32,493 nt of DNA from an uncultured Thiotrichaceae bacterium (lineage in GTDB: Bacteria; Pseudomonadota; Gammaproteobacteria; SZUA-229), in contig CAYRNH010000003.1 of assembly GCA_964425515.1 (NCBI GenBank), forward strand, positions 1 through 32,493. Reading direction: 5' to 3'. A program made the position numbers and the translations under genes. Positions within the stretch are counted from its first letter, which is position 1. Each line of letters begins with the position of its first letter. Under the pieces are notes generated by a model. The model made no database searches. It saw only the letters and a list, made by a program, of their open reading frames with translations, and was not told where the DNA came from. Of the stretch, positions 9,172-32,493 are shown in pieces.

Positions 9172-9717
9172 ATGTATAAATATATCGGGCTTTTTCAGAT
9201 CAGGTTATTGCTTTTTGTATTCCTGAGTTCGTGGGCTTTTAGTGCGGTGGCGGCTGAGGAAGTGAGCCGTGACCAGATAAAGGGCCTTGATGAGCAGGTT
9301 CAGGATATCAAAAAAAATGTTCTCGATCTGACTTCCGAGCTATCACGGCTGGAAGAAAAATTACTGTTCCCTTCCAATAGTCAGGTTTCATTGTTTGTCT
9401 CAATCGAAAAAGATGATCATTTTCGACTTGATTCTATCCAGCTCAAACTTGATGAAAAAATTGTTGCTGAGCATCTTTACACCTTTCGCGAACTCGAAGC
9501 GTTACAGAAAGGTGGTGTACAACGTCTATATACCGGCAATATAAAAACCGGTGATCATAAGCTGGTAGTGAGTTTTATCGGCAAGGCACCCGCAGGTGGT
9601 GAATATAAACGTAGCGCAAGTTACACAGTGGTAAAAGATGTCGGCCCAAAATTTGTTGAAATAAAAATCTCAGGTTCCGATGCCGCTGAACAGGATGCGA
9701 AATTCAGGGACTGGTAA
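9172..9717 (+). CDS. Secreted hypothetical protein (signal peptide, coiled coil, beta-rich domain); first gene of Agl-Glt-like operon
   Basis: Signal peptide ending AVA-A, heptad segment (LDEQVQDIKKNVLDLTSELSRLEEKLL), then beta-strand patterns. Stop is 2 nt before the next gene. Confidence 0.85.
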   Translation: MYKYIGLFQIRLLLFVFLSSWAFSAVAAEEVSRDQIKGLDEQVQDIKKNVLDLTSELSRLEEKLLFPSNSQVSLFVSIEKDDHFRLDSIQLKLDEKIVAEHLYTFRELEALQKGGVQRLYTGNIKTGDHKLVVSFIGKAPAGGEYKRSASYTVVKDVGPKFVEIKISGSDAAEQDAKFRDW

Positions 9718-9719
9718 GC

Positions 9720-11732
9720 ATGCGTGTTCTCCTGGCATGGTTATGTTTAGTACCTGTTGTCGCAGTGGCGGGCATTCGTCCGCATCAAAAAATACACGAT
9801 ATTTTTTATGGCGAAATTCTGTATTACGCGTACCAGGATAAATATTTTCAGGCAATATCGCATATCGACGATGAGCTCAGTCAGTATTACGCGCTGGATG
9901 AGCCCGCACTATCCAGTTTTAATTATCACCGAGATCAGGCCGAATTCGATATCGGTGATATTGAATTGTCCTATCGTATGGACAAGCGTGCGGGCACTGC
10001 ATTAAATCGTGTGCTGGATAAATCAGTTGAACCGGAAGAGCGTAATGATGCTGCATATCGATTGGCGCGCCTGTACTATCGCAAGCAGGATTATATTAAT
10101 GCCTTGCATGCAATAGAACTTATCAAGGGAAAAATTCCAGACAAAATTCTTGATGACGAAGTTTTTTTACGCGCAGAGATTTATGCAAACACAGGCAAGT
10201 TTGCAGATGCGATTAGTCTGCTTCAGGGGTTGCGAGGTAAAAAGGATTACGAAGGCTTTACCGAATACAATCTGGCCATGGTGTACCTGCAAAGTGGTCA
10301 GCAGCAAAAGGGACTGTCGATGCTGGACACACTCGGTAATCTGGACAGCAAAAATTCTGCAGTCCTGGCTTTAAAAGACAAAGGTAATCTCAAGCTGGCC
10401 TATTTCTATCTTGATGCTGGTCAGCCTGAAAAAGCCATGCCCTACTTTAATCGAGTGAGACTCGATGGGCCATTTTCAAATCGTGCCTTGCTCGGTGCTG
10501 GCTGGGCCGAAGTTTCCGAAAAGCATTATGACCGTGCCCTGGTGCCGTGGAGCATTTTGCGCGATCGCCTGCCGAGTAATGAATCTGCACAGGAAGCCAT
10601 GATGGCTGTGCCTTACGCTTATAGCAAACTTGAGTTATATGGTAAGGCAGCCGTTGGCTATGGCAAGGCGCTTGATATTTTTGGAACGCAAATCGATAAG
10701 CTCGATGCCTCAATTAAAAGTATTCGCGAAGGCAAGTTTTTAATGGCGCTGGTCGACAAGCGTGCAGCACACGATAAAAACTGGTTAATCAATCTTCGCA
10801 ATTTACCCGATAGTCCGGAAACACGATACATCATGCAGTTGCTGGCTGGAAACGATTTCCAGGAGTCGTTGAAAAATTATCGTGACCTTGCAGATTTACG
10901 CCAGTACCTGACAGTGTGGTTACATAATCTCGATGTTTTTGAGGAGATTATTGCGTTACGACGTAAGTATTACCAGCCATTGCTGCCAGACATTGATAAA
11001 AAGTTTGAGAAGCTTGATTCCAGAATAAAATTACGCGTTGCGCAGCGTGCCCGTCTGAATGAACGTATCCAGTCATTATTGATTTTACGTCGCCCGGAAT
11101 ATCTGGCAAGCGCAGATGAGCGTTACGAAGTTGATACCCTGGCAAAAATCAAAGTGGATTTTGAAGCAAAACCCGCACAGTACACGGACGATGTACGTTA
11201 TCGAATCCACCGCCTGCAGGGTGTACTGCAATGGCGCATCAATCAGGAATATGACAAACGTCTAACCACCGCGTACCAGCATTTGCAGGAACTTGATGGG
11301 CTTATTGATGGGATGAATAAGGCCTATCGTTCATTTGTGCGTACACGACAGGCAGCGACACAAAGTTATCAGGGCTACACCATACCGATCCAGCAATTAC
11401 GTACGCGCCTGCAGACAGCGCAGGTCAAGCTGCGCGGTGTGATGGCTCGCCAGGGCAGAGTGCTGGAACAGCTCGCGATCCATGAGCTTGATCGCAGACG
11501 TCGTCGACTCGAGGATTACCAGGTGAAAGCGCGCTTTGCCCTGGCTGAAAGTTATGACCGCGCGACCAAGGCCCAGGAAGACAAAGAGGTCAAAGCCATT
11601 GAGGAAAAGGCAAACCAGACCCGACAGAAGAAAAAGCAGGATGAGGCAATACCGGCCGCCCCAGCCAAACCTGCACAAACATCTGAAAAGCAGACTGGAA
11701 AACCTTCTGCATCTGGAGTGCCAGCGCCATGA
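9720..11732 (+). CDS. Periplasmic TPR/coiled-coil protein (GltC-like by position and architecture)
   Basis: 670 aa. Signal peptide (AVA-G), TPR-like repeats (AAYRLARLYY, EYNLAMVYL, ALLGAGWAE), long C-terminal coiled coil, Pro/Lys-rich tail. Confidence 0.8.
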   Translation: MRVLLAWLCLVPVVAVAGIRPHQKIHDIFYGEILYYAYQDKYFQAISHIDDELSQYYALDEPALSSFNYHRDQAEFDIGDIELSYRMDKRAGTALNRVLDKSVEPEERNDAAYRLARLYYRKQDYINALHAIELIKGKIPDKILDDEVFLRAEIYANTGKFADAISLLQGLRGKKDYEGFTEYNLAMVYLQSGQQQKGLSMLDTLGNLDSKNSAVLALKDKGNLKLAYFYLDAGQPEKAMPYFNRVRLDGPFSNRALLGAGWAEVSEKHYDRALVPWSILRDRLPSNESAQEAMMAVPYAYSKLELYGKAAVGYGKALDIFGTQIDKLDASIKSIREGKFLMALVDKRAAHDKNWLINLRNLPDSPETRYIMQLLAGNDFQESLKNYRDLADLRQYLTVWLHNLDVFEEIIALRRKYYQPLLPDIDKKFEKLDSRIKLRVAQRARLNERIQSLLILRRPEYLASADERYEVDTLAKIKVDFEAKPAQYTDDVRYRIHRLQGVLQWRINQEYDKRLTTAYQHLQELDGLIDGMNKAYRSFVRTRQAATQSYQGYTIPIQQLRTRLQTAQVKLRGVMARQGRVLEQLAIHELDRRRRRLEDYQVKARFALAESYDRATKAQEDKEVKAIEEKANQTRQKKKQDEAIPAAPAKPAQTSEKQTGKPSASGVPAP

Positions 11733-14700
11733 GCACGTACTTCAGTACAGTCGGTCTGGCAAGAGTCTCAGTGATTGTGGCGATGATGGCACTTGCCGCC
11801 TGTGCACATAATAAGGTGCGGGGTACGCTGGCTTCCCTGGCAACCGTAAAACCCGATGTTAAGGACGTAAAAATTGAAGGAAGCCTGGAAAAAGCGCTGC
11901 AGAGTTACCAGCATTTCCTTAAAGAAACACCCGAAACTGCGATGACGCCGGAAGCTATACGACGACTTGCAGATTTGAAAATTGAAAAAGAATATTCGGT
12001 CACCCCTGATTCTGTCGAAACGCCTGCAGTGACCGCCAGTACGGAAGCAAAGGCTTCGACTTCGGTTAATGCGCCAGCGGTAAAGGTTACCGCGCCAGAA
12101 TCGAAGCCTGCAACCGCGAGTACAACTACATCAGGTCCAGCTACATCAGGCCCGGTGACGTCTGCGCAGTCGGGCAAGATGGATGTGCCAGTGGTGCCTG
12201 TGGTGGATCGTAAAAAGGCTGCGGCGGTTACAGATAATAAGAAACAGCAGATCAGCAAGCGGTCGGGTGCGATCGCTGACCTTACAGAATCGGAAAAGTC
12301 CTTCAACGAACGCGCCAGCCAGCAGATAAAACTGCCAGCCGCCAAAAAAGAGAAAGTGAGCCCAGGGGGTAATACGGATGACCTGCAAACAGCCGGTGCA
12401 ATGGAGGCGATAAAGCTGTATCAGGGGCTGCTAAAAAAATACCCATTATATAAGCGTAATGATGAAGTGATGTATCAGCTGTCTCGTGCCTACGAAGACA
12501 CCGGGCAGATCAAAAAAGCGATTAAGACGCTGGATGTCCTGGTGGTGAAGTATCCGAATTCCAGGCATATTGATGAAGCGCAGTTTCGGCGTGCCGAATA
12601 TTTCTTTACCCACAAACATTATATTGATGCGGAAGAGGCTTACCAGGTGGTGCTGAACATGGGGCGCGGATCCGCGTTTTACGAACTGGCGCTGTACAAG
12701 CAGGGCTGGTCATATTTCAAACAGGAACTATATGATGACGCGCTAAAAGATTACATAAAAATGCTCGATCAAAAAGTTCAGGATGGTTATGATCTGAGCA
12801 ATATTAAAAACAAGATCGAGAAGAAACGTATTGATGATACTTATCGTGTGATCAGCCTGAGTTTCTCATATCTGGGTGGTGCGGATTCAATCGAAGATTT
12901 TTTCAAACAGGTGGGTCCTCGCGAATACGAAGCCAATATTTATAGTAACCTGGGTGAGTACTATCTTGAAAAACGTCGCTACAGTGATGCTGCACAAACC
13001 TACAATAGATTTATTCAGCGCAATCCGCTGAGCAAGGAGTCACCCTTATTTAATATTCGCGTGATCGAGATATATCTTAAAGGTGGATTTCCAAAACTGG
13101 TCATCGAAGCAAAGAAAAAGTTTTCCATCACCTATGGGTTAAAGGCAAGCTACTGGCAGTATTATGATATTAAGAAATTCCCGGTTGTACTGGCTTATCT
13201 TAAAACCAATCTTACCGATCTTGCGGTGTACTACCATGCCCTGTTTCAGGATAAACGTCTGTATAAACAAAAGCAGGATAATTATCTTGAAGCGGTTCGC
13301 TGGTATCGCGCGTTTCTTGCCAGTTTTCCAGAAGATGAGCAGGCACCCGTGCTGAATTATCAGCTGGCTGGGCTGATGCTGGAAAACAAGGATTATCGTG
13401 GCGCTGCGCTGGAATACGAGCGCACTGCGTACAATTACCCACCACACAAAAAATCAGCCGAGGCGGGTTATGCGGCAGTGTTTGCTTACCGCCAGTATTT
13501 TAAAGTGGCGCAGGCATCGGACCGCATATTGGTCAGGCGCGAAATTGTGCGTAGTTCACTCAAGTTTGTCGAGACTTTTCCCGATCATAAAAATGCGGCT
13601 GTGGTACTGGCTGCGGCAGCGGATGACCTCTATGCGCTGAAAGATTATCCAATGGCGGTTAAAACGGGTCGCAAACTAATAGAGAAATATCCGAATGCAG
13701 ACCCGAAACTAATACGTTCGGGCTGGCTGGTAGTTGCTCATGCATCCTTTGATCAGGCAAATTATGCCGATGCCGAAAAAGGCTATACACAGGTGCTGGC
13801 AATGACGGCCGCAAATGACAAAAGTCGAAGTGAGCTCATCGAGAACCTGGCTGCTTCGATATATAAGCAGGGAGAGCAGGCGAGGAAACTGGGAAAATAT
13901 CGCGAAGCCGCAAATTTCTTTCTGCGAGTTTCAGTCGTGACACCGACAGCAAAAATACGTTCCACGGCAGAATATGATGCTTCAGCAGCTCTGATTACTT
14001 TAAAGGACTGGCCGGCAGCAGCAAAAGAGCTGGAAGATTTCAGAAAACGCTATCCTGAAAATAAATTACAGCCCGAAATCACCAAAAAGCTGGCGGTGGT
14101 GTACAAGGAAGACGGCAAACCATTGCAGGCGGCGGGTGAGTATGAGCGTATTGTAAGCGAAACAGATAACAAGGAACTGAAGAGAGAGGCATTGCAACAA
14201 TCTGCAGACTTATACGTAACTGCAAAAGCCACAAACGATGCGCTGCGCGTTTACAATCACTTTGTAGAAATGTTCCCGCATCCGATTGAGGATGCTGTTG
14301 AAACACGTAACAAGATGGCAAATATATATAAGGAATCGGGCAACCATACAAAGTATCTACAGCAGTTAACCATTATTGTTGATGCGGACAAGCACGCAGG
14401 TAAGGAACGTACTGATCGTACGCGTTATCTTGCGGCCGAAGCAGCGCTGGTTCTTGCGGAGCCGGTGCTGAAGAGATTTTATGACGTTAAGCTAGTTAAG
14501 CCGTTTAAAAAGAACCTCAGGAAAAAGAACAGCCGCATGAAAGCCGCTATCGACACCTATGGAAAATTGCTCGACTATCAGGTGGGTGATGTGACTGCCG
14601 CAGCGACATACCAACTGGCCGAAATATATTATAACTTTAGTCGATCATTGATGAATTCCGAGAGACCGGACCATCTAAGTGCGCTTGAGCTTGAGCAGTA

Positions 14701-15001
14701 CAATATTATGATTGAGGACCAGGCTTACCCATTCGAAGAAAAAGCCATTTCAGTTCACGAGAAGAACCTGGAGTTGCTCAGTGTGGGGATATATAACGCC
14801 TGGATAGAAAAGAGCCTTGCAAAACTTGCGGTGCTAATGCCCGCGCGCTATGCAAAACCTGAACAGGATAGTTCATATGTTGAAAACCTGGTGCCTGTGA
14901 AGAATAAACAGGCGCCGACGGCGCCAGGTGCAACTCTACCAACTGAAAAGCCAGTCGCCAAACCTGACGCTACGGCTGCAATGAATGGTGATTTGCAATG
15001 A
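11729..15001 (+). CDS. Large TPR lipoprotein (GltD/AgmU-like)
   Basis: 1090 aa. Lipobox LAAC (Cys25), disordered linker, many TPRs (DEVMYQLSRAY, DEAQFRRAEYFF, LALYKQGWSYF), C-terminal EDQAYPFEEKAI segment. ATGA overlap with the upstream gene. Confidence 0.85.
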   Translation: MSTYFSTVGLARVSVIVAMMALAACAHNKVRGTLASLATVKPDVKDVKIEGSLEKALQSYQHFLKETPETAMTPEAIRRLADLKIEKEYSVTPDSVETPAVTASTEAKASTSVNAPAVKVTAPESKPATASTTTSGPATSGPVTSAQSGKMDVPVVPVVDRKKAAAVTDNKKQQISKRSGAIADLTESEKSFNERASQQIKLPAAKKEKVSPGGNTDDLQTAGAMEAIKLYQGLLKKYPLYKRNDEVMYQLSRAYEDTGQIKKAIKTLDVLVVKYPNSRHIDEAQFRRAEYFFTHKHYIDAEEAYQVVLNMGRGSAFYELALYKQGWSYFKQELYDDALKDYIKMLDQKVQDGYDLSNIKNKIEKKRIDDTYRVISLSFSYLGGADSIEDFFKQVGPREYEANIYSNLGEYYLEKRRYSDAAQTYNRFIQRNPLSKESPLFNIRVIEIYLKGGFPKLVIEAKKKFSITYGLKASYWQYYDIKKFPVVLAYLKTNLTDLAVYYHALFQDKRLYKQKQDNYLEAVRWYRAFLASFPEDEQAPVLNYQLAGLMLENKDYRGAALEYERTAYNYPPHKKSAEAGYAAVFAYRQYFKVAQASDRILVRREIVRSSLKFVETFPDHKNAAVVLAAAADDLYALKDYPMAVKTGRKLIEKYPNADPKLIRSGWLVVAHASFDQANYADAEKGYTQVLAMTAANDKSRSELIENLAASIYKQGEQARKLGKYREAANFFLRVSVVTPTAKIRSTAEYDASAALITLKDWPAAAKELEDFRKRYPENKLQPEITKKLAVVYKEDGKPLQAAGEYERIVSETDNKELKREALQQSADLYVTAKATNDALRVYNHFVEMFPHPIEDAVETRNKMANIYKESGNHTKYLQQLTIIVDADKHAGKERTDRTRYLAAEAALVLAEPVLKRFYDVKLVKPFKKNLRKKNSRMKAAIDTYGKLLDYQVGDVTAAATYQLAEIYYNFSRSLMNSERPDHLSALELEQYNIMIEDQAYPFEEKAISVHEKNLELLSVGIYNAWIEKSLAKLAVLMPARYAKPEQDSSYVENLVPVKNKQAPTAPGATLPTEKPVAKPDATAAMNGDLQ

Positions 15002-15594
15002 TGCTATTAAAAGCAAGCACAAGAGTTATGTTGATTATTGCGGCGCTATCATTTTTGCTTGTGGGCTGCGCAATAGCGCCCGAGCAAAAAGCGAGTACAA
15101 CGAAAGAAGAAAATGTAATCGTCGACCCTGATGTGGAGCAACTGTTTGATAAAGCGGTTGTATTGTTGAAACAGAAGGACTACGACAATGCGATTACGTT
15201 GTTAAACACTGTGGTTGAACGCGAACACCGTCTGACAGCACCGTACATTGATCTGGGCATGGCCTATCGTCAGAAAGGTGATAACAAAAAGGCCGAGGCC
15301 AATTTAATGAAGGCGCTTGATATAGACCTGGCGAATCCGGTTGCGAATAATGAGCTGGGGTTGCTTTATCGTAGCCTGGGACGCTTTAAAGATGCAAAAA
15401 AAGCCTATACTAATGCATTGACGCAGCATCCGGATTATTTGCCCGTGATCAGGAATTTGGGTATTTTATGTGATATTTATCTGAATGATCTGGACTGCGC
15501 GTTAGATCAGTATGAGAAATATCAGAAACTAAAGCCGGGAGACAAGGATGTGAAAAACTGGATTGCCGATCTTAAGGGCAGGATGAGGAAGTAG
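14998..15594 (+). CDS. TPR lipoprotein (GltE/AglT-like)
   Basis: Lipobox LVGC (Cys24), about 4 TPRs (DLGMAYRQKG, NELGLLYRSLG, RNLGILCDIYL). ATGA overlap. Confidence 0.85.
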   Translation: MMLLKASTRVMLIIAALSFLLVGCAIAPEQKASTTKEENVIVDPDVEQLFDKAVVLLKQKDYDNAITLLNTVVEREHRLTAPYIDLGMAYRQKGDNKKAEANLMKALDIDLANPVANNELGLLYRSLGRFKDAKKAYTNALTQHPDYLPVIRNLGILCDIYLNDLDCALDQYEKYQKLKPGDKDVKNWIADLKGRMRK

Positions 15595-15598
15595 GGAT

Positions 15599-15868
15599 AT
15601 GTTTAAATTATCGAAAACTTTGATCGTTCTCATGCTGGGCCTGAATTCAGTCGCCTATGCTGCAGACAAAGCCAAAGAGCTCTCCGGTATTTCTATTATT
15701 GGAAATGAGGAAGCGCCTAAGTCACTCTATATCGTCCCCTGGAAAAACTCAGAAGTTGGTGTTGAAACCAGCCTGACAACCGGCCTGCTGGACGAATCTA
15801 ATAAGCTTGTTGATAAAGATGTGTTTATGCGAGAACTTGATTTTTATCGACAGAGCAAGGCGCGATAA
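15599..15868 (+). CDS. Small secreted protein (GltF/CglF-like)
   Basis: 89 aa. Signal peptide ending AYA-A, motif LSGISIIGNEEAPKSLYIVPWK. Lies between the TPR lipoprotein and the motor genes. Confidence 0.75.
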   Translation: MFKLSKTLIVLMLGLNSVAYAADKAKELSGISIIGNEEAPKSLYIVPWKNSEVGVETSLTTGLLDESNKLVDKDVFMRELDFYRQSKAR

Positions 15869-15902: not shown

Positions 15903-16568
15903 ATGGATACACTTGAAAGTATAGTTAAATTTTTCCAGACCGGTGGGGCGTTTATGTATCCCATCATGCTGGTATTTGTTATCGGTCTTGCGATTGCGAT
16001 CGAACGCTGGATAAAACTCACTATTGTGCGTCGTGATAATCGTCGTGTCTGGACAATGGTGCATCCGGTGCTGGAAGAGGGCGAGTTTGATAAAGCACGT
16101 GACCTGGTTCTTGACGATAAATCTGCTATCGGCGGTTTGTTGACAATGGGACTGGCACGGCAGGGTTCGGTGCGCCGACGCGATGACATCGAAATTGCGA
16201 TGGAAGAAAGTATGATGGAAATTATTCCGCAACTTGAAAAACGTACACCTTATGTTGCGCTGTTTGCCAATATCGCTACTTTGTTAGGTTTGCTTGGAAC
16301 CATTATGGGTCTGATTGAAGCGTTTACCGCAGTTGCAAATGCAGACCCTGCGGAAAAAGCTGATCTGCTCTCTGCCAGTATTGCAGTGGCGATGAATACC
16401 ACGGCTTTTGGTCTGATCGCCGCCATACCATTATTGATTGGACATGCCATGCTGACATCCAAAACAGGCGAAATTATCGATAGCCTGGAAATGGCCTCGG
16501 TTAAAACACTGAACCTGATCGCGGACTTCGCTAAACGTCAGGCTGCGTTGGCGAACAAAAATGGCTAG
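15903..16568 (+). CDS. MotA/TolQ/ExbB proton channel family protein (AglR-like)
   Basis: Three TM segments, GGAFMYPI, ATLLGLLGTIMGLIEAF, AMNTTAFGLIAAIP. GAGGT RBS. Confidence 0.95.
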   Translation: MDTLESIVKFFQTGGAFMYPIMLVFVIGLAIAIERWIKLTIVRRDNRRVWTMVHPVLEEGEFDKARDLVLDDKSAIGGLLTMGLARQGSVRRRDDIEIAMEESMMEIIPQLEKRTPYVALFANIATLLGLLGTIMGLIEAFTAVANADPAEKADLLSASIAVAMNTTAFGLIAAIPLLIGHAMLTSKTGEIIDSLEMASVKTLNLIADFAKRQAALANKNG

Positions 16569-17055
16569 AGGTCACCACTACAAGCGGCCGAAGAAAGAGC
16601 CGCCTGAGCTCAACATCACTACCTTCCTTAATTTGATGGTGGTGCTGGTGCCGTTTTTGCTGATTACTGCCGTGTTTTCGCGACTCACTATTATGGAGCT
16701 GAATTTGCCCACCGGTCAGGGTGCGAGTGTGGCTAATAACAAACCTCAATTTGCAGTTGAGGTTGTCGTTCGCGAAAAAGGTCTGGAGATAAGTAATGGA
16801 AAAGTAATCATTGCGCGTTTTCCGAAAGTCGATGACAAGTACGATTTGCAGACACTGTCTAAATATTTGCTCAAAATTAAATCTCAATATATGAGCAAAA
16901 CGGACGCTACAGTTTTGATGGAGCCTGATATCAATTACAACACCTTAATACGGGTGATGGACGCAGTGCGTGCGGCCGAGGTGATACAGGGTGATAGTCA
17001 TGAGAAGCAGGAGATCGAACTGTTTCCAAATATTTCTATAGGTGACGCACCATGA
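16561..17055 (+). CDS. ExbD/TolR family protein 1 (AglQ/AglS-like; Asn at the conserved Asp site)
   Basis: Basic N-terminus, TM ELNITTFLNLMVVLVPFLL, periplasmic domain with EPDINYNTLIRVMDAVR. 8-nt overlap with the upstream gene. Confidence 0.9.
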   Translation: MARGHHYKRPKKEPPELNITTFLNLMVVLVPFLLITAVFSRLTIMELNLPTGQGASVANNKPQFAVEVVVREKGLEISNGKVIIARFPKVDDKYDLQTLSKYLLKIKSQYMSKTDATVLMEPDINYNTLIRVMDAVRAAEVIQGDSHEKQEIELFPNISIGDAP

Positions 17056-17555
17056 AGCAGAATCGACGGATGAAACGAATGGAGCGTAGCCATAAAAGAA
17101 GACCAGCTGGTTTGCATCTGGTTTCGTTGATGGACGTGTTCACAATACTTGTGTTTTTCCTGCTGGTAAATTCATCTTCCAGCGATGTGCTCGAGCCACC
17201 GAAGAGTATCAAGTTGCCAGACTCTATTGTGGATACCAAGCCTCGTGAAACCATTGTTGTACTGGTGACGCCGGAAAATGTGCTGGTTCAGGGGACTGTT
17301 GTGGCATCCACGCAGGACGTTATTAATTCAAAAAAATCTGTGATACCGGCAATTCGTGACAGGCTGATTGAGCAAAAAACAAAGGTCATCGGTTTTAAAA
17401 CAAAAACAGTGGCTGAATCTAAGGAGATTACTGTGCTTGCAGATCGCAGTCTTCCTTTCAAACTTCTTAAAAAAGTGATGTCAAGCTGCACCAGTGCTGG
17501 TTATAGCAAGATTTCGCTAGCAGTTATCCAGAAAGCTTCCCAGCAGAAGAAATAA
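17052..17555 (+). CDS. ExbD/TolR family protein 2 (AglQ/AglS-like; Asp28 present)
   Basis: TM LVSLMDVFTILVFFLL, IKLPDS, LADRSLPFKLLKKVMSSCTSAGYSKISLAV. ATGA overlap. Confidence 0.93.
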   Translation: MKQNRRMKRMERSHKRRPAGLHLVSLMDVFTILVFFLLVNSSSSDVLEPPKSIKLPDSIVDTKPRETIVVLVTPENVLVQGTVVASTQDVINSKKSVIPAIRDRLIEQKTKVIGFKTKTVAESKEITVLADRSLPFKLLKKVMSSCTSAGYSKISLAVIQKASQQKK

Positions 17556-17565
17556 CGGTGATTTT

Positions 17566-18930
17566 GTGAGTGATAATATTTCAGATCGTCAGAATGATAT
17601 TAATCGTAAGCTCGAGCAGGCTTATGATGATCTGATTGGTGTCGAAAACGAGCAAAAGCGCGTCGAGGCTGAATTAAAAGCCTTGCTCACCGAACGCAGT
17701 CGCTATTCTTTATTGAGTGAGATCAGCGACCACCTTGATCAACTTTATAAGCAGGGTGGCGCCAGCCTGTTCTGGGGTGAAGACTCCGATCCTGAAAAAA
17801 TGCGTCAGCATACACAACGCCTGCGTACCCGCATAGCGAATTACGACAACAAGGTACAGGAGCTGCAGTCACGCCAGTCAACAGGTGAATCCGAAGCACA
17901 AAGTCTGGCAGCACGCGTCAATGTTCTCAATGAAGAGAGTGCGGTGCTGCAGGAAGTGGCTGAAGAAGTTAAATACGAATTTGTCATTGAACGTGAAATG
18001 ACGCAGCTGCCTTTCCGGCCCATGGTCATGCCATGGCAGAGTGAGGGCGAAGATGATAAACGATTTAGACGCATCGTTGCTATTTGTTTGCTCGTCGGCC
18101 TGTTGCTGGGTTATTTGATTCCGTTGTGGAATATTCCGATTCCGGACAAGGTCGAGCAGATCAAGGTTCCAGAGCGTATGGCGCAGTTGATGCTGGAAAG
18201 AAAACCGCCGCCACCTCCGCCACCACCTCAGCCGGTTAAAAAGACACAGGAAGAGACGCCAAACAATAAGCATCCGAAAAAGGCGACTGCGCCCAAAACC
18301 GACAAAGCCAGGGTCGCGCGCAAGCGAGCCGAAAGAGCGGGCCTGATGGCGTTCAAAAAAGATTTTTCAGAACTTATGAATACCGGTTCGGTTGATAAGA
18401 AACTGGGTGCAAAAGCCAGCATCAGCAGCCTGGGTAAAACGGCGAGACATGCGACACGTTCACTGGTGACTGCAGAAGCGGGCAGTTCCAGCAGCGGTAT
18501 TAACACCGCTTCGCTAAGTCGCGATGTGGGCGGAGCAGGTACCGGCATGAAAGGTGTTGCTTTCCAGCGCGTTGAAAGTGCTATTGGCACTGACTTTGCC
18601 GGCGATGATCGACCATTGAGTGGTGGCCCAGGCCCCTCGCGTACCGATGAAGAAATTCAGATCGTGTTCGACCGTTATAAAGCAGTGCTGTACCGTATCT
18701 ATAATCGCGAATTACGTACTAATCCGACCTTGCAGGGCAAGATGGTATTACGTTTGACGATTGAACCTGATGGTAGCGTTTCGGCGTGTAAGATCGATTC
18801 CAGTGACATGCATTCACCGGTTCTTGAGAAGCAGATAGTTGCACGCGTTTTGAGATTTAATTTTGGACCGAAGAAGGGTGTTCCTGCAGTTACCATTTTA
18901 TACCCGATAGATTTTCTGCCGGCTTCCTGA
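17566..18930 (+). CDS. TonB-like energy transducer with AgmX/PglI-type C-terminal domain (GltG-like)
   Basis: GTG start, ~140-aa N-terminal coiled coil, single TM (IVAICLLVGLLLGYLIPLW), poly-Pro run, Gly/Ser-rich linker, TonB-C-like end (RTDEEIQIVFD...YNRELRTNPTLQGKMVLRLTIEPDGSV...YPIDFLP). Confidence 0.88.
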   Translation: MSDNISDRQNDINRKLEQAYDDLIGVENEQKRVEAELKALLTERSRYSLLSEISDHLDQLYKQGGASLFWGEDSDPEKMRQHTQRLRTRIANYDNKVQELQSRQSTGESEAQSLAARVNVLNEESAVLQEVAEEVKYEFVIEREMTQLPFRPMVMPWQSEGEDDKRFRRIVAICLLVGLLLGYLIPLWNIPIPDKVEQIKVPERMAQLMLERKPPPPPPPPQPVKKTQEETPNNKHPKKATAPKTDKARVARKRAERAGLMAFKKDFSELMNTGSVDKKLGAKASISSLGKTARHATRSLVTAEAGSSSSGINTASLSRDVGGAGTGMKGVAFQRVESAIGTDFAGDDRPLSGGPGPSRTDEEIQIVFDRYKAVLYRIYNRELRTNPTLQGKMVLRLTIEPDGSVSACKIDSSDMHSPVLEKQIVARVLRFNFGPKKGVPAVTILYPIDFLPAS

Positions 18931-22000: not shown

Positions 22001-25000
22001 TCCAGCGGACGTTATTCTCAAAGACTCAACCAACTACACGTTCCGTGCACAGATTACCAATGTGGGCACCGGTACTGCGGTAGGCGCGAAGTACCGCCTG
22101 ACATTACCGGCCGGAATGAAGTTTGAATCTGCGGATGTCACGCCGACCACGTTGGGTCCGTTTGATTATTCCGGCCAGACCATTGAATGGGCCCTGGGTG
22201 ATCTGGCGGCAGGTGCCTCGTCGAATATCAATATAACCACCAGCATTAATCAGACCACCTGTTTTCAGAACCCGACCGAAAAAATTACTTCGGAAACAGA
22301 ATGGGGTTGCGGCAGCCCGATCATCACCACCGAGACCAAACCCGGACTGGTTCTGGCGCCGCATCAGCTGACGCTGACGCACGATTCAAACAACAGCTTC
22401 TGTAAACTGTGTAACGAAGGTGAGGTGCGTCTGTTCGTTAACAATACCGGTAGCGTATTACTCACCAATGTCGATGTTACCGAAAACCTGATGGCCTCAG
22501 GTTTGACCTACGTACCCAATTCCACCACGTATTATGTCGATGGTGTTGCGGCGGCTGCACCACTGGCCGAGCCTACGGTGAGTGGCGCTAACTCAGAATT
22601 GATCAACTGGAACACGTCGCAGATTCCGGAGCTCGCAAATCTGTATAGCGCGTTCAGTGCAGGCGCAGGCAAACCGCAGCAAATAGAAATTCGTTTTCGC
22701 GTTAAACGCAACACCGCAGGTGGTTTTAACAATGAAGGTTTGATATCAGCCAATAGAAATATTCAGGCGACAGCAAGTTATGGCCTGTTCTGCGGACCGC
22801 CGCCGCAGACCGCGAGCAGTGCTTTGTTTGAATTACCCATCGATCAGCCGGTGCCGACAGTGACCAAGCAGGCAAGAAACGTTGATGCTAATCAGCCACC
22901 CTCTGCTTATGCGAATACGGTGTACGGTGGTAGTGCAGACAATGTGATCTGGCGAGTGCAGGTGACGAACAACGGCCCTGACAGCCGCGCCGATCTTGAA
23001 GCGTTGATTTTAAATGACAGCATCGACAACATCGGTGGCAACAATTTTTTGATCAATGAAGTCTGTGATAGCGAAGCGAATGCAACGCTGGCAGCCCAGG
23101 GCGCCTCACCAGGATCACCTGACTGTATTTCTGTTGGCTCGACTGCATCAACCAGCTTCAGTGTGAATGATCCATTCGGCAATCCAAACAATGATGAGAC
23201 GACAAGTTTCATCGATGTGCTCAAGGGCGGCCAAACGTATATTTATTTTGTCGGCAAGATTCAGAATACCTGTACCAATCATACCAACAGTGTTGATATT
23301 GCCTGGGGTTGTCAGTCCGATCCACCGGATGGCGGCATTACCACGCCCGCGACCAGTGGTGGAGTGACGCCTGCGTACAGTAACGCAGATACTGCTGCTC
23401 TGAGTACCGCGGTGAATCCTGCCGGCGTGATCATCAGCCAGACGGTGACAGGAAGGAATCCGGCGCAACCGCTGGGCGCAACCGGTATCGTCACGGTCAC
23501 GATTCGTAATAATTCGGGCGGCAGCGTGCGCGGTATCACGCTGGACGATGTACTGCCCGCAGGGTATGCGCTGGACCAGACATTGATGACCGCTGTTGAT
23601 ACCCCGGCGTTTGGTGCCTACACCGGGATGATCGATACCGTCAATCTGACGAATCCACAGGCGGCTGCAGAAAACAATACCAGCCCATCTTTTACGCTGA
23701 CCAGTTCCGGTGGTACTGCACCGCAAAATAATCTGCTTCGTCACGGCGATGTGCTGACCATTACGCTTGGTATCGTCAAGAAAAATGGTTTTGATATTGT
23801 CGCCAATCCCGAAGTGCGGGTAGAAAATACCGGTGACGGTACCGACCCTTCGGTAGCTACGCCGCTGAATAATAAAGCAACGGTTGTGTTTGAAAATACC
23901 TGTGGCAGTGCTTTCCCTGCAGTGGTGAATAATCTTTCGGTATCACCCGCACCCGAAGATCTGGATATCAATATTAATCCGACGAATGCGGATCTGATAT
24001 ATATATTGAGTGACCCAACTGCGTCTCTGAGCCTGGATGTGCAGCTGACCAATAATGGTGGCAATGATGCCAGTCATTATTTTACTTATGTGACGGTTGG
24101 TAGTGGACTCAAGGTACTGACTCCTGTGCCGACTGGTTGTGCTGTCACCAGTAATCCACCAGCGCATGCGGTATGGGCGCCCGCATTGCCGGCAACGGCA
24201 ACAGTGTATCAATGTACTAAGACGGACCCGCTACCGCCTGGCTCAACCGACAGTTTTGTTTTTAATGTACAAAAGCAGAACACGGGTGCTGATTTAACCT
24301 TCCGTGCCGATGTGGTGGGCGAGATTACCTTAAGCGATGGCACGCCGCTGACATATCCGACACCCGACACGACCATTGCCAATACCGCAAACAATTATTC
24401 ACTGGATTCGATCCGTGCGCGCCTGATCGGTTTTAATCTTACCAAGGTGATTCAGGGAAACTGCACCGAAAACAATCCCGCGCCAGTCAATAATAATCGA
24501 GTGCAAATTGGTGAGGACTGCACCTATCGCATGGAAGCTGGCTGGTTTGGTTTTGCAACGCCGGGTTTTGGCAGCATTCAAATCAAGAATGCGGTAATCA
24601 CCGATACCATTCCAGTGGGTCAGGGTTTTATTTCACAGAACACCAGCAATAGTAGTGCTGGCATCACAAATATAACAAGCACAGCATCGGGTCTGACGCC
24701 ACCGGCCTATAGTCCGTCTATTAGCTGGCAGTTTGATCCATTTGCCGGTGATGAGACCTTCAGTGTGGACCTGGTTACGCGCACGCTCAATGATCCACTG
24801 AACAGTTCGGCTTCGCCTAATGTGCACGGTGCATACAGGGCAGACACGGTCAATGCGAGCTTTGACGTTGATTTTGGTGGCACCACGAAGTCGTTTGGAT
24901 CGACCACGCCCGGCTATCCACCGATATCTGTGCGCAGGGCTCCTGTCAGAGTCATCGAACCACATCTGATTATTACCAAGGAAGTCTGCGATGAAACGAT

Positions 25001-28000
25001 TCATGGTGTTGGGCCTGCGTGTACCGCCTTCGTACCCCTGGTCAATGAAGGCGATACCAATGATAACTATGTTTACCGGGTAAGCATTCTCAATGAGGCT
25101 ACATCCGGCGGCTACCAGCGCGCGCCTGCGTACGATGTTGATATCACCGATGTGCTTGATAGCAGTGACCTGCTCACACTGGATCCCAGCTATCTGATCT
25201 ATGAAGTCGATAATACGAATAATGGTACTGTCGATGCCTCAGGTTCCTTATCTCCAATGGTTATCACCGATAACACCCCCAACAATGGAACGCCCGGTGT
25301 TCTGAGTATTTTATCGAGTACAAATCCGGTATTGCAGAAAATCGACCCCGGCCAGAAGGTGATGCTTTATTACCGCGCCAATCCGGATGATGCTGCGGCA
25401 CCGGGACAGCAGCTGAAAAATTCTGTAACAGCTCACTACGACACCTTGCCGGGCGTGTCGGGCAACCAGAATGCACCACAGGAAGCCAGTGGTACTGCCG
25501 GTGGTGCGCGTGAATACACCACCACGCCACAAAGTGCCACCATAGAAATCACTTCACTGACAGTGCCGCCCAAATCCAAAGGCATACTGGCGCTTTCAAA
25601 TACACCGTTGGGTGGTGTGGCACCGTTTGTTGGGCCGCAGAACGCAGCGGTCGGTGAAGAAATTCAATACCAGCTGCAGGTCGATATGCCCGTGGCGAAC
25701 CTGAATACTTTTGTTATTCGTGATGTGCTGCCTGTTGGCCTTAAATGTATTGAAGCGGAAACCATCAATCTGGATGCAGCACCTTATAGCACCGCAGGTT
25801 TTTCACCGGGTGGTACGTTCGTACCCACCTGTACTAATAATGGAACCAACGATGTTGTGGAATGGGATTTTGGCGATCAGAAACTGACCAATGGCCCCAC
25901 CTTTAACTTTACTGCGAAATTTATCGCACGCGTCGAAAATATCGCCAGTAACCGCGATGGCGTTCTACTTCGCAACGGCGGTACCGGTGCGGGCAGCACC
26001 CTGGCAACGCTGAGTTACAAAGATGCCGGTGGTAATCCGGTAACGGTGAATTTAGGGCCCGCTGACGTGACTGTGAGCGAACCCAAAATCGTACTGAATA
26101 AAGTCTATGGTGTGACGAGCGCAGATGCAGATGATGAACTGACAGTCACAGTCACCGCCACAAATACAGGAACATTACCTGCGTACAATGTACGCGTGTT
26201 TGATGATCTGGCAGCAGTCACGGACCTGACCTATGTTTCAGGCAGTAACTCGGCCAATGTGACCCAGGATTTGAGTCTGGGCGCTAATCGTCCGGTATTT
26301 ACTTTAAATCCGGTCGCGCCGATTGCAGCAGGCGCGAATGTCAGTTTCACTTTTAAAGTAAAGGCAAGTTCGACCGTACAACCGCTCGAAGTGCTGGATA
26401 ATACGGTGCAGGCGGCATGGACCTCTTTGCCGGGTTCTGGCACGGCATTGAATTCAGGCGGCAGCATCGGTGCAGATGGCAGCGCGACCGGTATGCGCAC
26501 CGGGGCGATTCCTAATGCGGGTGATACGCTGAATAATTACGAAGCGACCTTCACCAATAACGCATTACTTGTTCCATCAGTCAGTGTTACCAAAACCGAT
26601 TTAAATCCAGCAGTGGTGCCCACCATTGGTGAACGTAAAAAGTTCGAACTCGATATCGCGATTCCAGAAGGCGTTACCAATAATCTTAAAATCAGCGACG
26701 ATCTGTTTGCTGCATCCGGATTGCCGCCAGCCGCCGCTTATGTTCTGGAAGACAGTGCTGGCTATAACATCAGCTACAGTTTCTCGGGCATAGCCAGCAT
26801 CAACGGTGCTGCACCTGCAAAAACTGCATTCACCGCATTGCCGACTAACGGTGCTAGCGGAGTGATCACCTGGAACATTGGTAAAGTGATCACGAATACA
26901 GAAAACGATGCGGTATCGAATGCGATCAACCCGTCGATACATATTACCTATTACGCGCGCATTAATAACGACACCAGCACCCATGCGGGCGATGCCATGC
27001 TCAATTCGGCGAGCGCTACATTTACCAGTGGCGAAACCGGTGCAACCACAACCACAACACCGGTGGCCGCGCCGCAGGAGACCGTGAAGGAACCTGCGCT
27101 GACAGTCACCAAAACATTTAACAATGTAACACCGGGAAAAAATCCGACCGACCTGCCCGACGGCGGTGACACGATTGAATATGTGTTAACGCTAAACAAT
27201 ACCGGCACCAGCACTGCATTCGATACCAATATTGTCGACACGCTACCCGCCGCTTTGCAGCTCGATACCAGTTTTACCCCGACTGCAACCATCGGCGGCA
27301 CGCCCGTGTCTGGCTTCGTTTCCACGCCAGACGGTTCACCTGGTGGGCCATTGATCTGGGGTCGTGGAAAAGCCGTGCCGGACGGAAGTCTGGATATACC
27401 CGCTGGGCAGTCGCTGATACTGACCTATCGAGTGACTTTGCAGAACAACGTGCTGGCTGATCTTGCGATCAACAATAGTGTGCTGGTTGACTGGACTTCG
27501 CTCAATGGCAGCTCGCCAGATGAGCGCACCGGTGCAGGTTGCCCGACCATCACTGCGCCCAATGATTACTGCAGCGGGCCGATAACCGCGGTGATGAATG
27601 TCAGTGATAACAACAGCATTGTCAAAACTCGATTGACGGATACTTCACCGACATTGACTGCACCGAATGATGTGCGCATTGGCGACATCGTAGATTACGA
27701 ACTGCACGTTAATATCCAGGAAGGCACCAGCCCTGATGTAAAAGTGACTGACACCCTGCCCAAAGGCCTCGCCTTTGAAGGCGTGTTGAGTGTTAACGGT
27801 GATACTACGGCACCGTATTCTCAGTCAGGGCCGTTTAGCTATAGTGATATCGCTGCCCCCACCGTTTCGGGTAATCCCGCCAGCGGGCCGAGTACCGTGA
27901 CCTGGAATCTGGGAACCATAGTCAACGCGGCCGACAACAATACCGCGAACAATGATTTTGTCATTGTGTATCGCGCGCGTGTGCTCAATCTTGTGCAGTT

Positions 28001-31000
28001 GCAGCAAAATAGCATCAGCCTGACCAACACCGCAAACCTGGATTACACCACGGCCAACGGTGCGGCAACGACCAGAACAGGTAGTGAAACGGTCACCATA
28101 CTGCAGCCGAATTTAAGCGTCACTAAAACGGCCGCACCCGCAGGCGGTGACAATCTTATCGATGCCGGTGAACTGATCGATTACACCGTTGATGTCACTA
28201 ACAATGGTACCGCGCCTGCGTATGATCTGGAGCTCAGCGATATTATTCCGGTGGGTTTACGCAATGGCGCGGCGACCATCACCATGGTCAGTACCGAGCT
28301 GCCGGTGGGAACAACAGTGACCAGTCTGCCACCGGTGTACGATGCGGTGACCGGCAATGCCATCTGGAATTTTGATACCGGCACGGCAGACGCCTACACC
28401 ATTCAGCCAGGCGAAACATTACGTATTGTCTATCGTGTGCAGGCCGACCCTACACTTGGCCCTGGTCTCACCATGACCAACTCGGCTCAGGCCAGACGTT
28501 ATTATTCATTCGACAATAATGCGGTTCCGGTTGCGGGGACAAGCACCGGTGTGCGTGAAATATACGGGCCCAGCAATACCGCGACAGCAACACTGCAGAC
28601 GCCGGCAGCAGGACCACTGGCGATACAGAATCCGGCGAGCCTGAATGCTTCTATCGGTGTGCCGTTTACCTATCGCATCACTGTGCCGGCGACGCCGCAA
28701 AATACTGCGCTGAACGATGTGCGTATTCTCGATAATTTATCTACGTCGGCAGCGGATATGGTGTTTGTCAGCGTGAGCAAAGTTTCCGGATCTGGATCAT
28801 GGACACCGGTGAATGTGGGGACTTCGAAAAATATTATTATTCAGGATTCGGGTGCCGGCGGTATCGATATCCCTGCCAACCAGCAGGTCGTGATTGATCT
28901 CACTGTGCAGCTGCGTAATCAACCGGTGAACGTAGCTGGTCTGACCTTTAACACGACTGCCAGTTATACCTTTAATAAGGTCAACGGCGATAACACCACA
29001 CAGGGCGTGACTGTGCCCGTTACCACCGCACCCGATATGGTGGTGGTCGAGCCGGATCTGCATTTACGTAAATTCGGGCCATCACCTGCGATTGTCCAGT
29101 TTGGTAATCCGATTCCATATCGACTCGAAGTTGAAAATGTCGGCACCGGCCCGGCCTACGACATTACCGTGCGCGATCACTTACCAAGTGTGCCCGATGC
29201 CGGCCCGCCACAAACCGGCGGCACCTGTAATACCGCGCCCGATAATTTTGTAGTGCAGATCACCAATGATTCGCTGGTGGTGTTGCGCACGCTGGTGAAG
29301 AACGTGGATTACACCGAAACGCACACAGCGGCGCCGACCTGTGAGCTGGTGATTAAAACCACTCCATCCTATACCTCGCCGAATGCGGTGCTGGGTGCAG
29401 ATGAAAGACTGGTGATCAACTACGATGCGTATCTTGATGTGAATACGCTCGATGGGGTTTCGCTTACCAACATCGCGGGCGTTACCGAATGGTTCAGTGC
29501 GGATACCGCAGGTGCAGGCGCTACCGGCGAAACCCGTACTTATACCAAAACTATTACCGATGGCACGGTGGGTACTTTTGACCATCAGGATGCGTACACC
29601 GTGCAGACCCAGTCGCCGGTACTGGTGATTCAGAAAACAGTGGTGAATCTGACATCGGGACAGAACCCGGGCTCGAATGCAAAACCGGGCGATACACTGC
29701 GTTACACGATCACGATCAAAAACATCGGCCCGGTAGGTATTTCAAGTTTCAGTCTCACCGATGAGCCGGACCGGCTGACAACGCCGCCGGGTATTTTTGT
29801 TCCCGGCTCGATGACAAATATTGTGGTGCCTGCGGGCGCTGACAATACCAATACGAATATCAACGGCGGTGCGCACGGTGCGGGCAGACTCGATGTGCGC
29901 AACATGTCACTGGATGCCGCGGGCGGTGCAAACGATACCCGCACGATCAGTTTTGATGTCACCCTGGAACCGGTATTGCCCAGCGGCACGATTGCGCGTA
30001 ACCAGGCGCTGGTGAGCACGCCCAATTTCAGTAACCTGCAATCAGACGATCCTAATATTAACGGTGCCGACAATCCTCTGGTGTTCGGCGATGAAGATCC
30101 AACGCAGACGCTGATCGGTTCGGTACCGACCTTCCGCCTGCAGAAAACATCAAAAGATCTGACCGGTGATCCGAATGTGCTGCGTCAGGGCGACACGCTG
30201 CAATACACCATCACTGCGAAAAACATTGGTATCGAAAACGCAGTGAACGTTATGTTGCGCGATCAGGTGCCGGCCAACAGCAGCTATGTGACAGGCAGTA
30301 CCACATTGAACGGAGTGGCGATTGCCGACCCGGCTGCAGGCATATCGCCTTTGCAAAACGGCATTCTGATCCACGCGCCCGAAGACAGTACCGCAGGCAA
30401 TATGCGCGCAGACAGCAGTGCGACCACTGCGAACGTTGCCACCATCACCTTTAGCGTGGTGGTGGATTCGAATGTGGTCAATGGCACGGTGATATCCAAC
30501 CAGGCCTTTGTCACCGGGCAGGGCGTGGGTAGTGGACCGTTCCCGACCCAGCAGTCGGATGATCCGAGTACCGATGTGTTTGGCGATCCAACGCAGAATA
30601 TCGTTGGCAACCTGCCGATACTGAATGTGCAGAAAACGGTGGCGCTGCTGAATGATGCAGGTACCGCGGGCCAGGTCGATACCGGTGATACTCTGCGTTA
30701 CACGTTTAAAATCAGTAATGCCGGTGCGATACCCGGCACCGGTGTGGTGTTGCGCGACAGCATCCCTGCGAACACAAGTTATATCGCCAACAGCGTTACT
30801 CTGAATGGCAACGCCATCGCCGATGCGTCGCCCGGGGTTTCGCCATTGATCGCAGGCATCGATATAAATTCTTCCGATGTGACGCCACCATTGCCAACAC
30901 CGGGCAATGGCAAGGTTACCGCCGGACACTCGGCCACGGTCACCATCGATGTCACCGTGACCGGTGCGCCCGGACAGCTGATTAGCAACCAGGGCACCTT

Positions 31001-32493: not shown

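Follow-up and report, generated by a model that had tools for sequence, protein, structure and literature searches.

The window analysed here, a stretch of 32,493 nt that is the whole of one contig (C3) of a 2.45-Mb metagenome-assembled genome (MAG) of an uncultured Thiotrichaceae bacterium (84.7% complete), raises the question of what a proton-driven machine of the cell envelope might do for a giant secreted protein encoded directly after it. Nine genes of the window (g1 to g9) form an operon with the gene content of the core complex of the Myxococcus Agl-Glt machine, and a tenth (g10) encodes the giant, which the initial annotation of this DNA had taken for the cargo or partner of the motor. 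We find that operons of the type present in the window, which we call the long form after the long N-terminus of their g9 protein, are linked to a giant, to the large barrel protein that partners it (g11), or to a fusion of the two in 62 of the 63 loci that can be decided, in three different arrangements, versus none of 16 operons of the short form. With moderate confidence, we read the locus as two coupled modules, in which the giant and g11 would form a surface fibre (module B) and the long-form g1 to g9 machine (module A) would energise it.

The operon, the giant and the barrel

Genes g1 to g9 lie tightly packed on the plus strand between positions 9172 and 18930 and encode three tetratricopeptide repeat (TPR) proteins, two small secreted proteins, a MotA/TolQ-like channel, two ExbD-like proteins and a TonB-like protein. 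This nine-gene trans-envelope set had been described with its coordinates in the initial annotation, and both the open reading frames (ORFs) and the domain matches bear it out, including the three ATGA overlaps (at 11729, 14998 and 17052) and the 8-nt overlap of g6 and g7 (16561-16568); the remaining gaps within the operon are 2, 4, 34 and 10 nt. The features on which the argument rests are as follows (positions are those of the window unless a contig is named).

9172-9717, + strand: g1, a 181-aa protein with a signal peptide and a coiled-coil-like N-terminal half
9720-11732, + strand: g2, a 670-aa secreted TPR protein with a signal peptide and matches to TPR_19, TPR_16 and TPR_14
11729-15001, + strand: g3, a 1090-aa TPR lipoprotein (lipobox LAAC), ATGA overlap with g2
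14998-15594, + strand: g4, a 198-aa TPR lipoprotein (lipobox LVGC; matches to TPR_1, TPR_2 and TPR_8), ATGA overlap with g3
15599-15868, + strand: g5, an 89-aa secreted protein with a signal peptide, its place kept in both operon forms
15903-16568, + strand: g6, a 221-aa AglR-like proton-channel subunit of the MotA/TolQ/ExbB family (PF01618, 87.8 bits)
16561-17055, + strand: g7, a 164-aa ExbD/TolR-like protein (PF02472, 55.8 bits) in which Asn replaces the membrane Asp
17052-17555, + strand: g8, a 167-aa ExbD/TolR-like protein (PF02472, 50.7 bits) with the membrane Asp28, ATGA overlap with g7
17566-18930, + strand: g9, a 454-aa GltG-like force transducer with a coiled-coil N-terminus, one membrane helix, a Pro-rich linker and a TonB/AgmX-type C-terminal domain
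18931-19094, + strand: the 164-nt gap between g9 and the giant
19095-32493, + strand: g10, the giant, with a Sec-type signal peptide, open to the window end and thus the first 4466 of 4761 aa
Contig C269 nt 939-2780 and contig C161 nt 3-2690, outside the window: g11, ~1714 aa, with a signal peptide, OmpA-like domains and a large predicted beta-barrel

The available text of Luciano et al. 2011 (PMC3169522) describes a core complex, a cluster of seven gene families and an extra gene in Gammaproteobacteria, one betaproteobacterium, Geobacter and Fibrobacter, and presents it as the presumed forerunner of both the Agl-Glt gliding machine and the Agl-Nfs spore-coat machine of Myxococcus; the same text reports that AglR binds GltG, judges motility from the core alone unlikely and notes that most carriers are not known gliders. 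The function of the core complex outside Myxococcus is stated as unknown in the accessible parts of papers from 2011, 2013 and 2020, and a survey of periplasmic force transducers (PMC12204202) does not mention GltG or AgmX. In the window, the stator of such a complex is represented by one PF01618 protein (g6) and two PF02472 proteins (g7 and g8) encoded by adjacent, overlapping genes, while its GltG-type transducer is represented by g9, which combines a membrane helix and a Pro run with a C-terminal domain that passes both the AgmX/PglI model NF033768 (66.6 bits, cut-off 40) and TonB_C PF03544 (26.5 bits, cut-off 24.6). No other protein of the genome exceeds the NF033768 cut-off, nor does any of 14 control genomes contain one that does. 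The earlier identification of the gene set with the Agl-Glt core complex (a MotA/TolQ-like protein, two ExbD-like proteins, a GltG-type TonB-like protein and TPR proteins) thus stands as a statement of content, and we regard the operon as a putative Agl/Glt-core-type machine on the strength of its domains, one domain model and the published description.

The conserved residues of the stator follow a regular pattern. The membrane Asp of g8 (D28) is found in 109 of 109 orthologues and the matching column of g7 holds Asn in 101 of 104, in operons of both forms, an asymmetry that suggests a heteromeric plug with a single proton-binding site. In the available text of Wartel et al. 2013 (PMC3858216), the D28N substitution in AglQ abolishes proton conductance and paralyses the M. 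xanthus machine. We also observed, in three long-form loci labelled as Desulfobacterota or Nitrospirota, a second MotA/TolQ-like gene ~70% identical to g6 and placed directly after g9 (L128 4473-5192, L133 2379-3113 and L153 4180-4878).

The remaining operon proteins are less readily assigned. Two of the three TPR proteins are lipoproteins, and none of the three matches a GltC or GltD model; TPR likeness alone does not prove orthology. From its position and size, g3 may be the GltD-like member; it matches TPR_6 and TPR_2, scores 47.6 bits with YfiO (BamD-like) and contains four YbgF/CpoB-like TPR units over the model cut-off (TIGR02795, 112.5 bits versus 90.1). The g4 lipoprotein is a candidate GltE/GltC-like member, with 32.3 bits against the GltE equivalog versus a cut-off of 225. 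The position of g2 is kept among related loci, g1 homologues are the first gene of both long- and short-form operons, and neither g1 nor g5 reaches the cut-off of any Pfam or NCBIfam family.

Profile searches separate the operon from its better-known relatives. TolQ (55.5 bits versus a cut-off of 221), TolR (32.1 versus 127.3), TolA (18.2 versus 59.45), ExbB (38.8 versus 206.2) and ExbD (25.3 versus 216) are all missed, and judged by the NCBIfam cut-offs the operon is not a Tol-Pal or Ton system. The gliding equivalogs are missed as well: besides GltE, the best scores are 43.3 bits for GltG (cut-off 650) and 30.5 bits for GltJ (cut-off 450), and the other gliding models have no match among g1 to g9, the only proteins scanned with them. 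Hence the profile comparison with Myxococcus that had been proposed for this locus gave a divided answer, in that g9 passes the AgmX/PglI model and the GltG, GltE and GltJ gliding models are not reached. The GltG model is likewise passed by no protein in the two Myxococcota MAGs described below, and NF033760 by none in the 14 control genomes.

The giant can be followed beyond the window, since the first 55 nt of contig C269 are identical to the window end and its frame continues there for 313 residues, colinear with the complete orthologue of a relative. Its Pfam matches are DUF11 (PF01345, in 8 stretches), DUF7619, DUF7507 and SdrD_B, and its NCBIfam matches are TIGR01451 (211 bits, 11 stretches) and the isopeptide model TIGR04226 (179 bits, 4 stretches), which identify it as a stalk of the isopeptide/DUF11 fibrillar adhesin type with isopeptide bonds predicted from its domains. 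Pfam and NCBIfam scans detected no RTX, type 9 secretion system (T9SS) C-terminal domain or two-partner secretion (TPS) families in it. The best-conserved part is the C-terminal module formed by the 313 residues on C269, which is 53-96% identical across 17 sequences; in Desulfobacterota-type giants it is 58-64% identical versus 35-49% for the remainder. In its structural model, an Ig-like DUF11 domain and an SdrD-B-like domain are followed by a final beta-alpha-beta-alpha-beta domain (residues 216-301 of the module, pLDDT 72-92), and the terminal Ig-like domains fold like Gram-positive pilins and SdrD; both the fold and the profile searches of the module are dominated by these Ig-like domains. 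An OmpA-like identity was considered for the final domain, which stays unassigned, but Pfam gave no such match at E values up to 5. Two genomes of one genus, G002 (L033/L049) and G001 (L040), have the giant split into many shorter ORFs next to an intact operon, either through real frameshifts or through errors in assembling a repetitive gene.

The initial annotation had also stated that no translocator was available to explain the giant. Within the window, there is indeed no TonB-dependent receptor, TolB/Pal, type 1 secretion system (T1SS) or TpsB gene, the gene after the giant being on other contigs, but the downstream sequence overturns this point: the TGA stop of the giant overlaps the ATG of g11 as ATGA. 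The g11 protein is split between residues 1-614 on C269 and the last 895 on C161, with ~200 residues unassembled, and measures 1703-1734 aa in relatives. It matches PF00691 in 3 stretches (93.5 bits) and several OmpA-type NCBIfam models, and the alignment consensus contains three OmpA-like motifs. An AlphaFold2 model of the C-terminal 895 aa (from a 28-row alignment) contains 43 beta-strands, 29 of them consecutive after residue 363, and most 10-residue blocks between residues 410 and 750 have a pLDDT of 70-90. The nearest folds found by Foldseek are LptD and TonB-dependent transporters, at TM-scores of at most 0.30 that allow no family to be assigned, and the matches in the ESM Atlas are unnamed 'outer membrane protein' clusters. 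Plug domain, TonB-dependent receptor, POTRA/ShlB and autotransporter beta-domain families were not detected in g11 by Pfam or NCBIfam. Because of the translational coupling, the recurrent fusion described below and the conserved C-terminal 'handle' of the giant, we conclude that g11 is probably the outer membrane partner of the giant, as translocator, anchor or both.

The g11 family is large, with 2731 proteins at E <= 0.001 among the candidates scored. Its members carry no annotation beyond 'OmpA family protein' or 'flagellar motor protein MotB', and the source's family and Microbulbifer share g11 at 61% identity. Directly after the signal peptide and before the first OmpA-like domain (939-1150 of C269) lies a strongly conserved segment with the consensus GENTE.HLPPD.VFNLW.QDETFF, at the position that a TonB box takes in TonB-dependent transporters.

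Linkage of the long-form operon to the giant-barrel pair, and its surroundings

Within the same family, 21 genomes have a match, of which 13 (10 genus codes) were examined for linkage, with 2 kb or less visible in four of the 13 loci. Left out of this count were four genomes whose contig ends at g9 (G006, G008, G010 and G021), one with a match of 36% identity on a short contig (G013) and three with short-type matches only (G005, G020 and G023). A giant homologue directly follows g9 in all 13 loci, and the six with enough contig all carry both a giant (4130-5022 aa) and g11. Synteny of the giant with the operon, which had been proposed as a check, therefore holds in the family and, as described below, extends well beyond the source genome.

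In a sample of 400 genomes of the class, 74 contain a g9 match at E <= 1e-10, and the match is full-length in only 6, the source genome included; the others begin at ~residue 145 of g9 and belong to proteins of ~310-350 aa. The alignment indicates that the long g9 equals the short g9 plus ~145 cytoplasmic residues; the cytoplasmic coiled-coil region, of ~150 aa, is found in the long form only. For the short form, we examined 16 of the ~60 short-type matches, picked by score and contig size. These operons keep the gene order, as 12 of the 16 have all nine genes, 2 lack a separate g2 match and 2 are partial, and none has a giant or g11 match within ~10 kb in either direction. Each of the 6 genomes of the sample in which g9 is long carries a g11 homologue that is at least 51% identical. 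Four long-form loci lie outside the family, three with a giant and two of these three with g11 as well; in the fourth (G144), the contig stops 2.6 kb past g9 inside a 744-aa ORF that is still open, and another contig carries a g11 that is 51% identical.

A wider scan with the g9 alignment against one genome per species yielded 80 loci, all of the long form, which were classified by script. The carriers span Gamma- and Betaproteobacteria, Desulfobacterota and Myxococcota, and comprise Thiotrichaceae-type MAGs, at least 8 Microbulbifer species or MAGs, Pseudomaricurvus, Thiohalomonadaceae, Alkalilimnicola ehrlichii, MAGs of Gallionella and Burkholderiales, numerous MAGs of Desulfobacterales, Desulfuromonadales and Geothermobacteraceae, and a pair of Myxococcota MAGs. 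A giant is found downstream in 46 loci, a fused giant-g11 ORF in 2 and g11 upstream of g1 in 14, with 17 loci undecidable at contig ends and a single exception. Both fused loci are those of the Myxococcota MAGs, in which one ORF of >3300 aa after g9 consists of the C-terminal half of a giant followed by g11 (L127 11421-21344 and L154 11369-21364). The 14 loci in which g11 ends just before g1 are of Desulfobacterota type, apart from one labelled Gemmatimonadota, and in all five for which the DNA upstream of g11 was inspected a giant of 2820-3775 aa ends at g11. Thus, the gene order in Desulfobacterota-type loci is giant-g11-operon, as opposed to the operon-giant-g11 order of the window. It should be noted that the groups were set by the g9 N-terminus, a feature separate from the one counted, and that related genomes are not independent samples.

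To place the two forms, a quick maximum likelihood tree (LG+G4) was built from g6, g7 and g8, leaving g9 aside, for the 54 of 100 loci that have all three genes. All 38 long-form rows fall on one side of a single branch (SH-aLRT 100), with the Desulfobacterota-type loci nested within. The linkage has been kept through deep divergence (35-50% identity) and through rearrangement.

Upstream of the operon are genes for HopJ-family, HSP20, EF-G, cupin, ABC-F, PhoH and DAG kinase proteins. The 114-aa ORF at 1029-1373 (+ strand) is a full-length match to PF08888, the HopJ type III effector family (E = 2.4e-47), and no type III secretion genes were seen around it within the window. A 286-aa protein at 1429-2289 (- strand) has a long N-terminal extension ahead of a C-terminal HSP20 domain and adjoins an EF-G-family GTPase (2338-4431, - strand). 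Close protein relatives are labelled 'Gammaproteobacteria bacterium', 'Thiotrichales bacterium' or 'uncultured Thiotrichaceae', and DNA nearly identical to positions 16500-21500 (0.40-0.80 of the sampled words) occurs in seven salt marsh metagenome runs with seven study codes.

How the two modules may be coupled

The gene content, the domains, the conserved residues, the linkage and the natural fusions are observed; from them we infer the topology of the system, the contact between its modules and its use of energy as follows. The giant would enter the periplasm via Sec, and the g11 barrel would either pass it through the outer membrane or hold it there, while the OmpA-like domains of g11 would fix the assembly to peptidoglycan. 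The variable, Ig-like N-terminal stalk would then lie outside the cell, with the conserved ~310-aa C-terminal module at the barrel or in the periplasm. On the side of the operon, the proton channel of g6 with g7 and g8, in which g8 Asp28 would serve as the proton site, may convert proton flow into conformational work of g9, which by analogy with TonB and TolA would carry that work across the periplasm via its Pro-rich linker and TonB/AgmX-type domain. The TPR lipoproteins g3 and g4, together with the periplasmic g1, g2 and g5, may make up its scaffold or outer portion. One use of the energy could be to drive or gate the movement of a passenger of >4000 residues through the barrel in a compartment where ATP is absent; another could be to pull on, reposition or release a fibre that is already anchored. 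The cytoplasmic coiled coil of g9, which is confined to the giant-linked clade, may provide input, control or anchoring from inside the cell. We rate the role of an accessory energiser or actuator above that of the exporter for the motor, because giant-barrel pairs exist without the operon in other genomes.

A bolder form of this proposal is that the long-form core and g11 together constitute an undescribed outer membrane secretion/actuation system, in which a TolQR/ExbBD-type proton motor, a GltG-like transducer and a TPR scaffold thread or pull an Ig-repeat fibre of several thousand residues through a ~40-strand, peptidoglycan-pinned barrel. We offer this only tentatively and regard it as doubtful at present. 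Were it true, it would show what sort of task, the moving of a surface protein, the gliding and spore-coat machines of Myxococcus grew out of.

Several observations weigh against the coupling of the two modules. The first concerns transcription. The 164-nt gap lacks terminator-like and promoter-like sites in a plus-strand scan of 18930-19095, in keeping with the initial annotation, which had seen no terminator there; a hairpin at ~18943-18963 was rejected as a terminator by the scan, and the gap does not fold better than its shuffled versions (z = -0.78). Positions 16500-21500 were compared with two DNA runs and with one salt-marsh metatranscriptome in contig form, a kind of data that does not demonstrate transcripts and to which DNA in the library may contribute. 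Contigs of the RNA library that are at least 99% alike cover only 16559-16709 (in g7) and 20682-20813 (in the giant), and no metatranscriptome contig from this one run spans 18930-19095. Second, the assignment of the operon to the Agl/Glt core type is drawn from domain content, one domain model and the published description, and the model of the g11 barrel is of low confidence (mean pLDDT 58.2, pTM 0.44). Third, a Gallionella MAG (L120) is the single exception among the decidable loci, with neither giant nor g11 in the 2.3 kb visible downstream and 1.9 kb visible upstream and with unrelated genes after g9. Fourth, the long form is one clade, whose linkage may date from one ancient event and have persisted since. 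Short-form operons also exist without giants, which indicates that the core machine has another output there.

Finally, the giant and its barrel are not confined to genomes with the machine. The barrel part of g11 has matches in 44 of the 400 class genomes at E <= 1e-20, versus the 6 with a long g9, and six of these places were examined. In G320, a giant and g11 have unrelated genes downstream, and the genome contains only a weak short-type g9 match elsewhere; this g11 is 55% identical to the barrel fragment of the window's genome and 45% identical to the copy in G022 over its full length. G334, G360 and G339 each have a giant with a g10-like C-terminus followed by a barrel protein of 1265-1449 aa and no adjacent operon. 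Single ORFs that end in a g11-type barrel occur in G174:C1 (L172, 5036 aa) and G179:C2 (L173, >6331 aa, the open frame being listed as 11777 aa), and in a Desulfobacterota-type genome more distant g11 paralogues (26%) are likewise preceded by an ORF of >3549 aa. From such pairs and fusions without the operon, it follows that the motor is not a general exporter of this class of protein. The earlier proposal that the motor acts on the giant thus survives in a narrower form: a link is supported for the long-g9 variant only, given its absence from all 16 short-form loci, and the notion of a general exporter does not hold.

These same pairs, the short-form operons that lack giants and the gap without proof of co-transcription are what one would expect of two independent systems that merely travel together, with a self-sufficient giant and g11 on one side, a Tol-Pal/Ton-like maintenance or uptake system (g1 to g9) on the other, and shared regulation or a common island keeping them adjacent; the YbgF/CpoB-like TPR units of g3 also fit a maintenance role. 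However, the linkage persists in 62 of 63 decidable long-form loci, which bear three or more phylum-level labels, and has survived an exchange of gene order; it also coincides with a particular alteration of g9 and with a distinct clade of motors. Furthermore, g6 to g8 score far below the TolQ, TolR, ExbB and ExbD cut-offs, and of the three PF01618 genes in the genome, two besides g6 are available for those roles. On balance, we consider this explanation unlikely.

Less probable still is a surface-motility machine in which the motor propels the giant along the cell surface, as in GldLM-SprB of Flavobacterium or Agl-Glt-CglB of Myxococcus. The relation of the operon's domain content to the Agl-Glt core, the giant and repetitive adhesin-like nature of the cargo, and the cytoplasmic extension of g9, which could connect to an internal track, are all compatible with it. 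To our knowledge, though, the cultured carriers Microbulbifer and Alkalilimnicola are not known as gliders. The three peptidoglycan-binding OmpA-like domains of g11 favour a fixed anchor, and no operon protein reaches a gliding equivalog. The core alone is also considered unlikely to drive motility, its carriers mostly not being known gliders (Luciano et al. 2011, PMC3169522, available text). The propulsion raised in the initial annotation accordingly finds nothing in its support. Gated import or sensing, with g9 acting TonB-like on g11 to open the barrel for uptake of fibre-captured material or for contact signalling, is very improbable, since the TonB_C-like domain of g9, the conserved segment that opens mature g11, a position occupied by the TonB box in TonB-dependent transporters, and the presence of such transporters among the nearest barrel folds (at TM-scores <0.3) are set against a g11 in which no plug domain or TonB-dependent receptor family was detected, fusions with giant passengers that point to export and anchoring, and a locus beside which no uptake or metabolic genes are conserved. 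A complex prediction of g9 residues 350-454 with g11 residues 28-230 gave no answer (score 0.00 in both runs) and speaks neither for nor against binding.

We therefore retain the coupled fibre and machine as the preferred reading, and it has several consequences. A long-form subfamily that stands beside one cargo-like pair in nearly every decidable locus provides the first concrete candidate for what the core complex acts upon, and cultured, non-pathogenic marine carriers (several Microbulbifer, among them M. harenosus, M. litoralis and M. variabilis, as well as Pseudomaricurvus and Alkalilimnicola ehrlichii) make the proposal testable. The fibre may play a part in attachment within sediments and symbioses, as the organism occurs in salt-marsh metagenomes and its relatives include an animal endosymbiont, going by the record name. 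A literature search, to which subscription journals and supplements (Luciano 2011 Figure S1 and Tables S2-S3 and Wartel 2013 Figure S9, which may depict such giants) were external, found no paper that links the core complex with a giant adhesin, assigns a function to the core or describes the g11 family.

Comparison with known systems

The closest likeness is to the Agl-Glt and Agl-Nfs core, with which the operon shares a MotA/TolQ-like protein, two ExbD-like proteins, a Pro-rich TonB-like protein with an AgmX/PglI domain and three TPR proteins in one operon, along with additional genes that have no Myxococcus counterpart. Desulfuromonadales-type copies nest among the gammaproteobacterial ones here, as those of Geobacter do in Luciano et al. 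2011 (PMC3169522). In contrast to the core in its published descriptions, for which the accessible texts name neither function nor cargo, the locus described here ties one subfamily to a giant fibre and a giant barrel, and its g9 has a cytoplasmic coiled coil whereas M. xanthus GltG matches FHA-type N-termini. With g1 to g9 as the proteins scanned, none of the Group A gliding genes (gltA, B, F, H, I, J and K) was seen. With Tol and Ton systems, the operon has in common a proton-driven inner membrane stator of the same families, a Pro-rich transducer that spans the periplasm and ends in a TonB_C-like domain, and the CpoB/YbgF-like TPR units of g3. It differs from them in its two ExbD paralogues with their Asp/Asn asymmetry, in six extra envelope proteins and in having no TolB, Pal or TonB-dependent receptor at the locus.

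A functional parallel is offered by SiiAB of Salmonella SPI-4, a proton-conducting MotAB/ExbBD-like pair that is encoded with, and needed by, the giant Ig-repeat adhesin SiiE, the role of the proton motive force in this being still open (Kirchweger et al. 2019, 10.1101/641415, available text). SiiE, which lacks a Sec signal peptide, is exported by a type 1 system composed of an ABC transporter, a fusion protein and a TolC-like protein, whereas the giant described here has a Sec signal, a barrel of its own, a TonB-like transducer and a TPR scaffold; beyond the stator families, we claim no homology between SiiAB and the operon. The giant also differs from type 1 RTX/Bap-like adhesins of the LapA and SiiE type in general, as it carries a Sec signal and no RTX family, and T1SS genes were found neither in the window nor after g11 in relatives.

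The T9SS and gliding machinery of Bacteroidota comprises the GldLM proton motor, the very large SprA barrel and the giant adhesin SprB with a Sec signal. The logic is the same here, a proton motor being combined with a very large outer membrane barrel and a giant Sec-signal adhesin. The phyla differ, however, and family scans found no sequence relationship, the PorW/SprE model reaching 38 bits versus a cut-off of 250 on the TPR units.

More broadly, g11 stands for a widespread, unnamed class of very large OmpA-linked outer membrane barrels that are paired or fused with giant proteins, and such barrels bear on how proteins of 3000-11000 residues may come to be displayed by Gram-negative bacteria when no type 1, type 5 or type 9 system is involved. 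Type 5 secretion comes nearest in arrangement, in that a passenger with a Sec signal is paired or fused with a neighbouring barrel and the fused forms have the passenger N-terminal and the barrel C-terminal. TPS, POTRA/ShlB and autotransporter beta-domain families were not detected in the giant or g11 by Pfam or NCBIfam, and whereas type 5 barrels have 12-16 strands, the barrel region of g11 spans ~900 aa with ~40 predicted strands. Moreover, three OmpA-like domains lie between passenger and barrel, and in the long-form subfamily a proton motor is attached to the whole.

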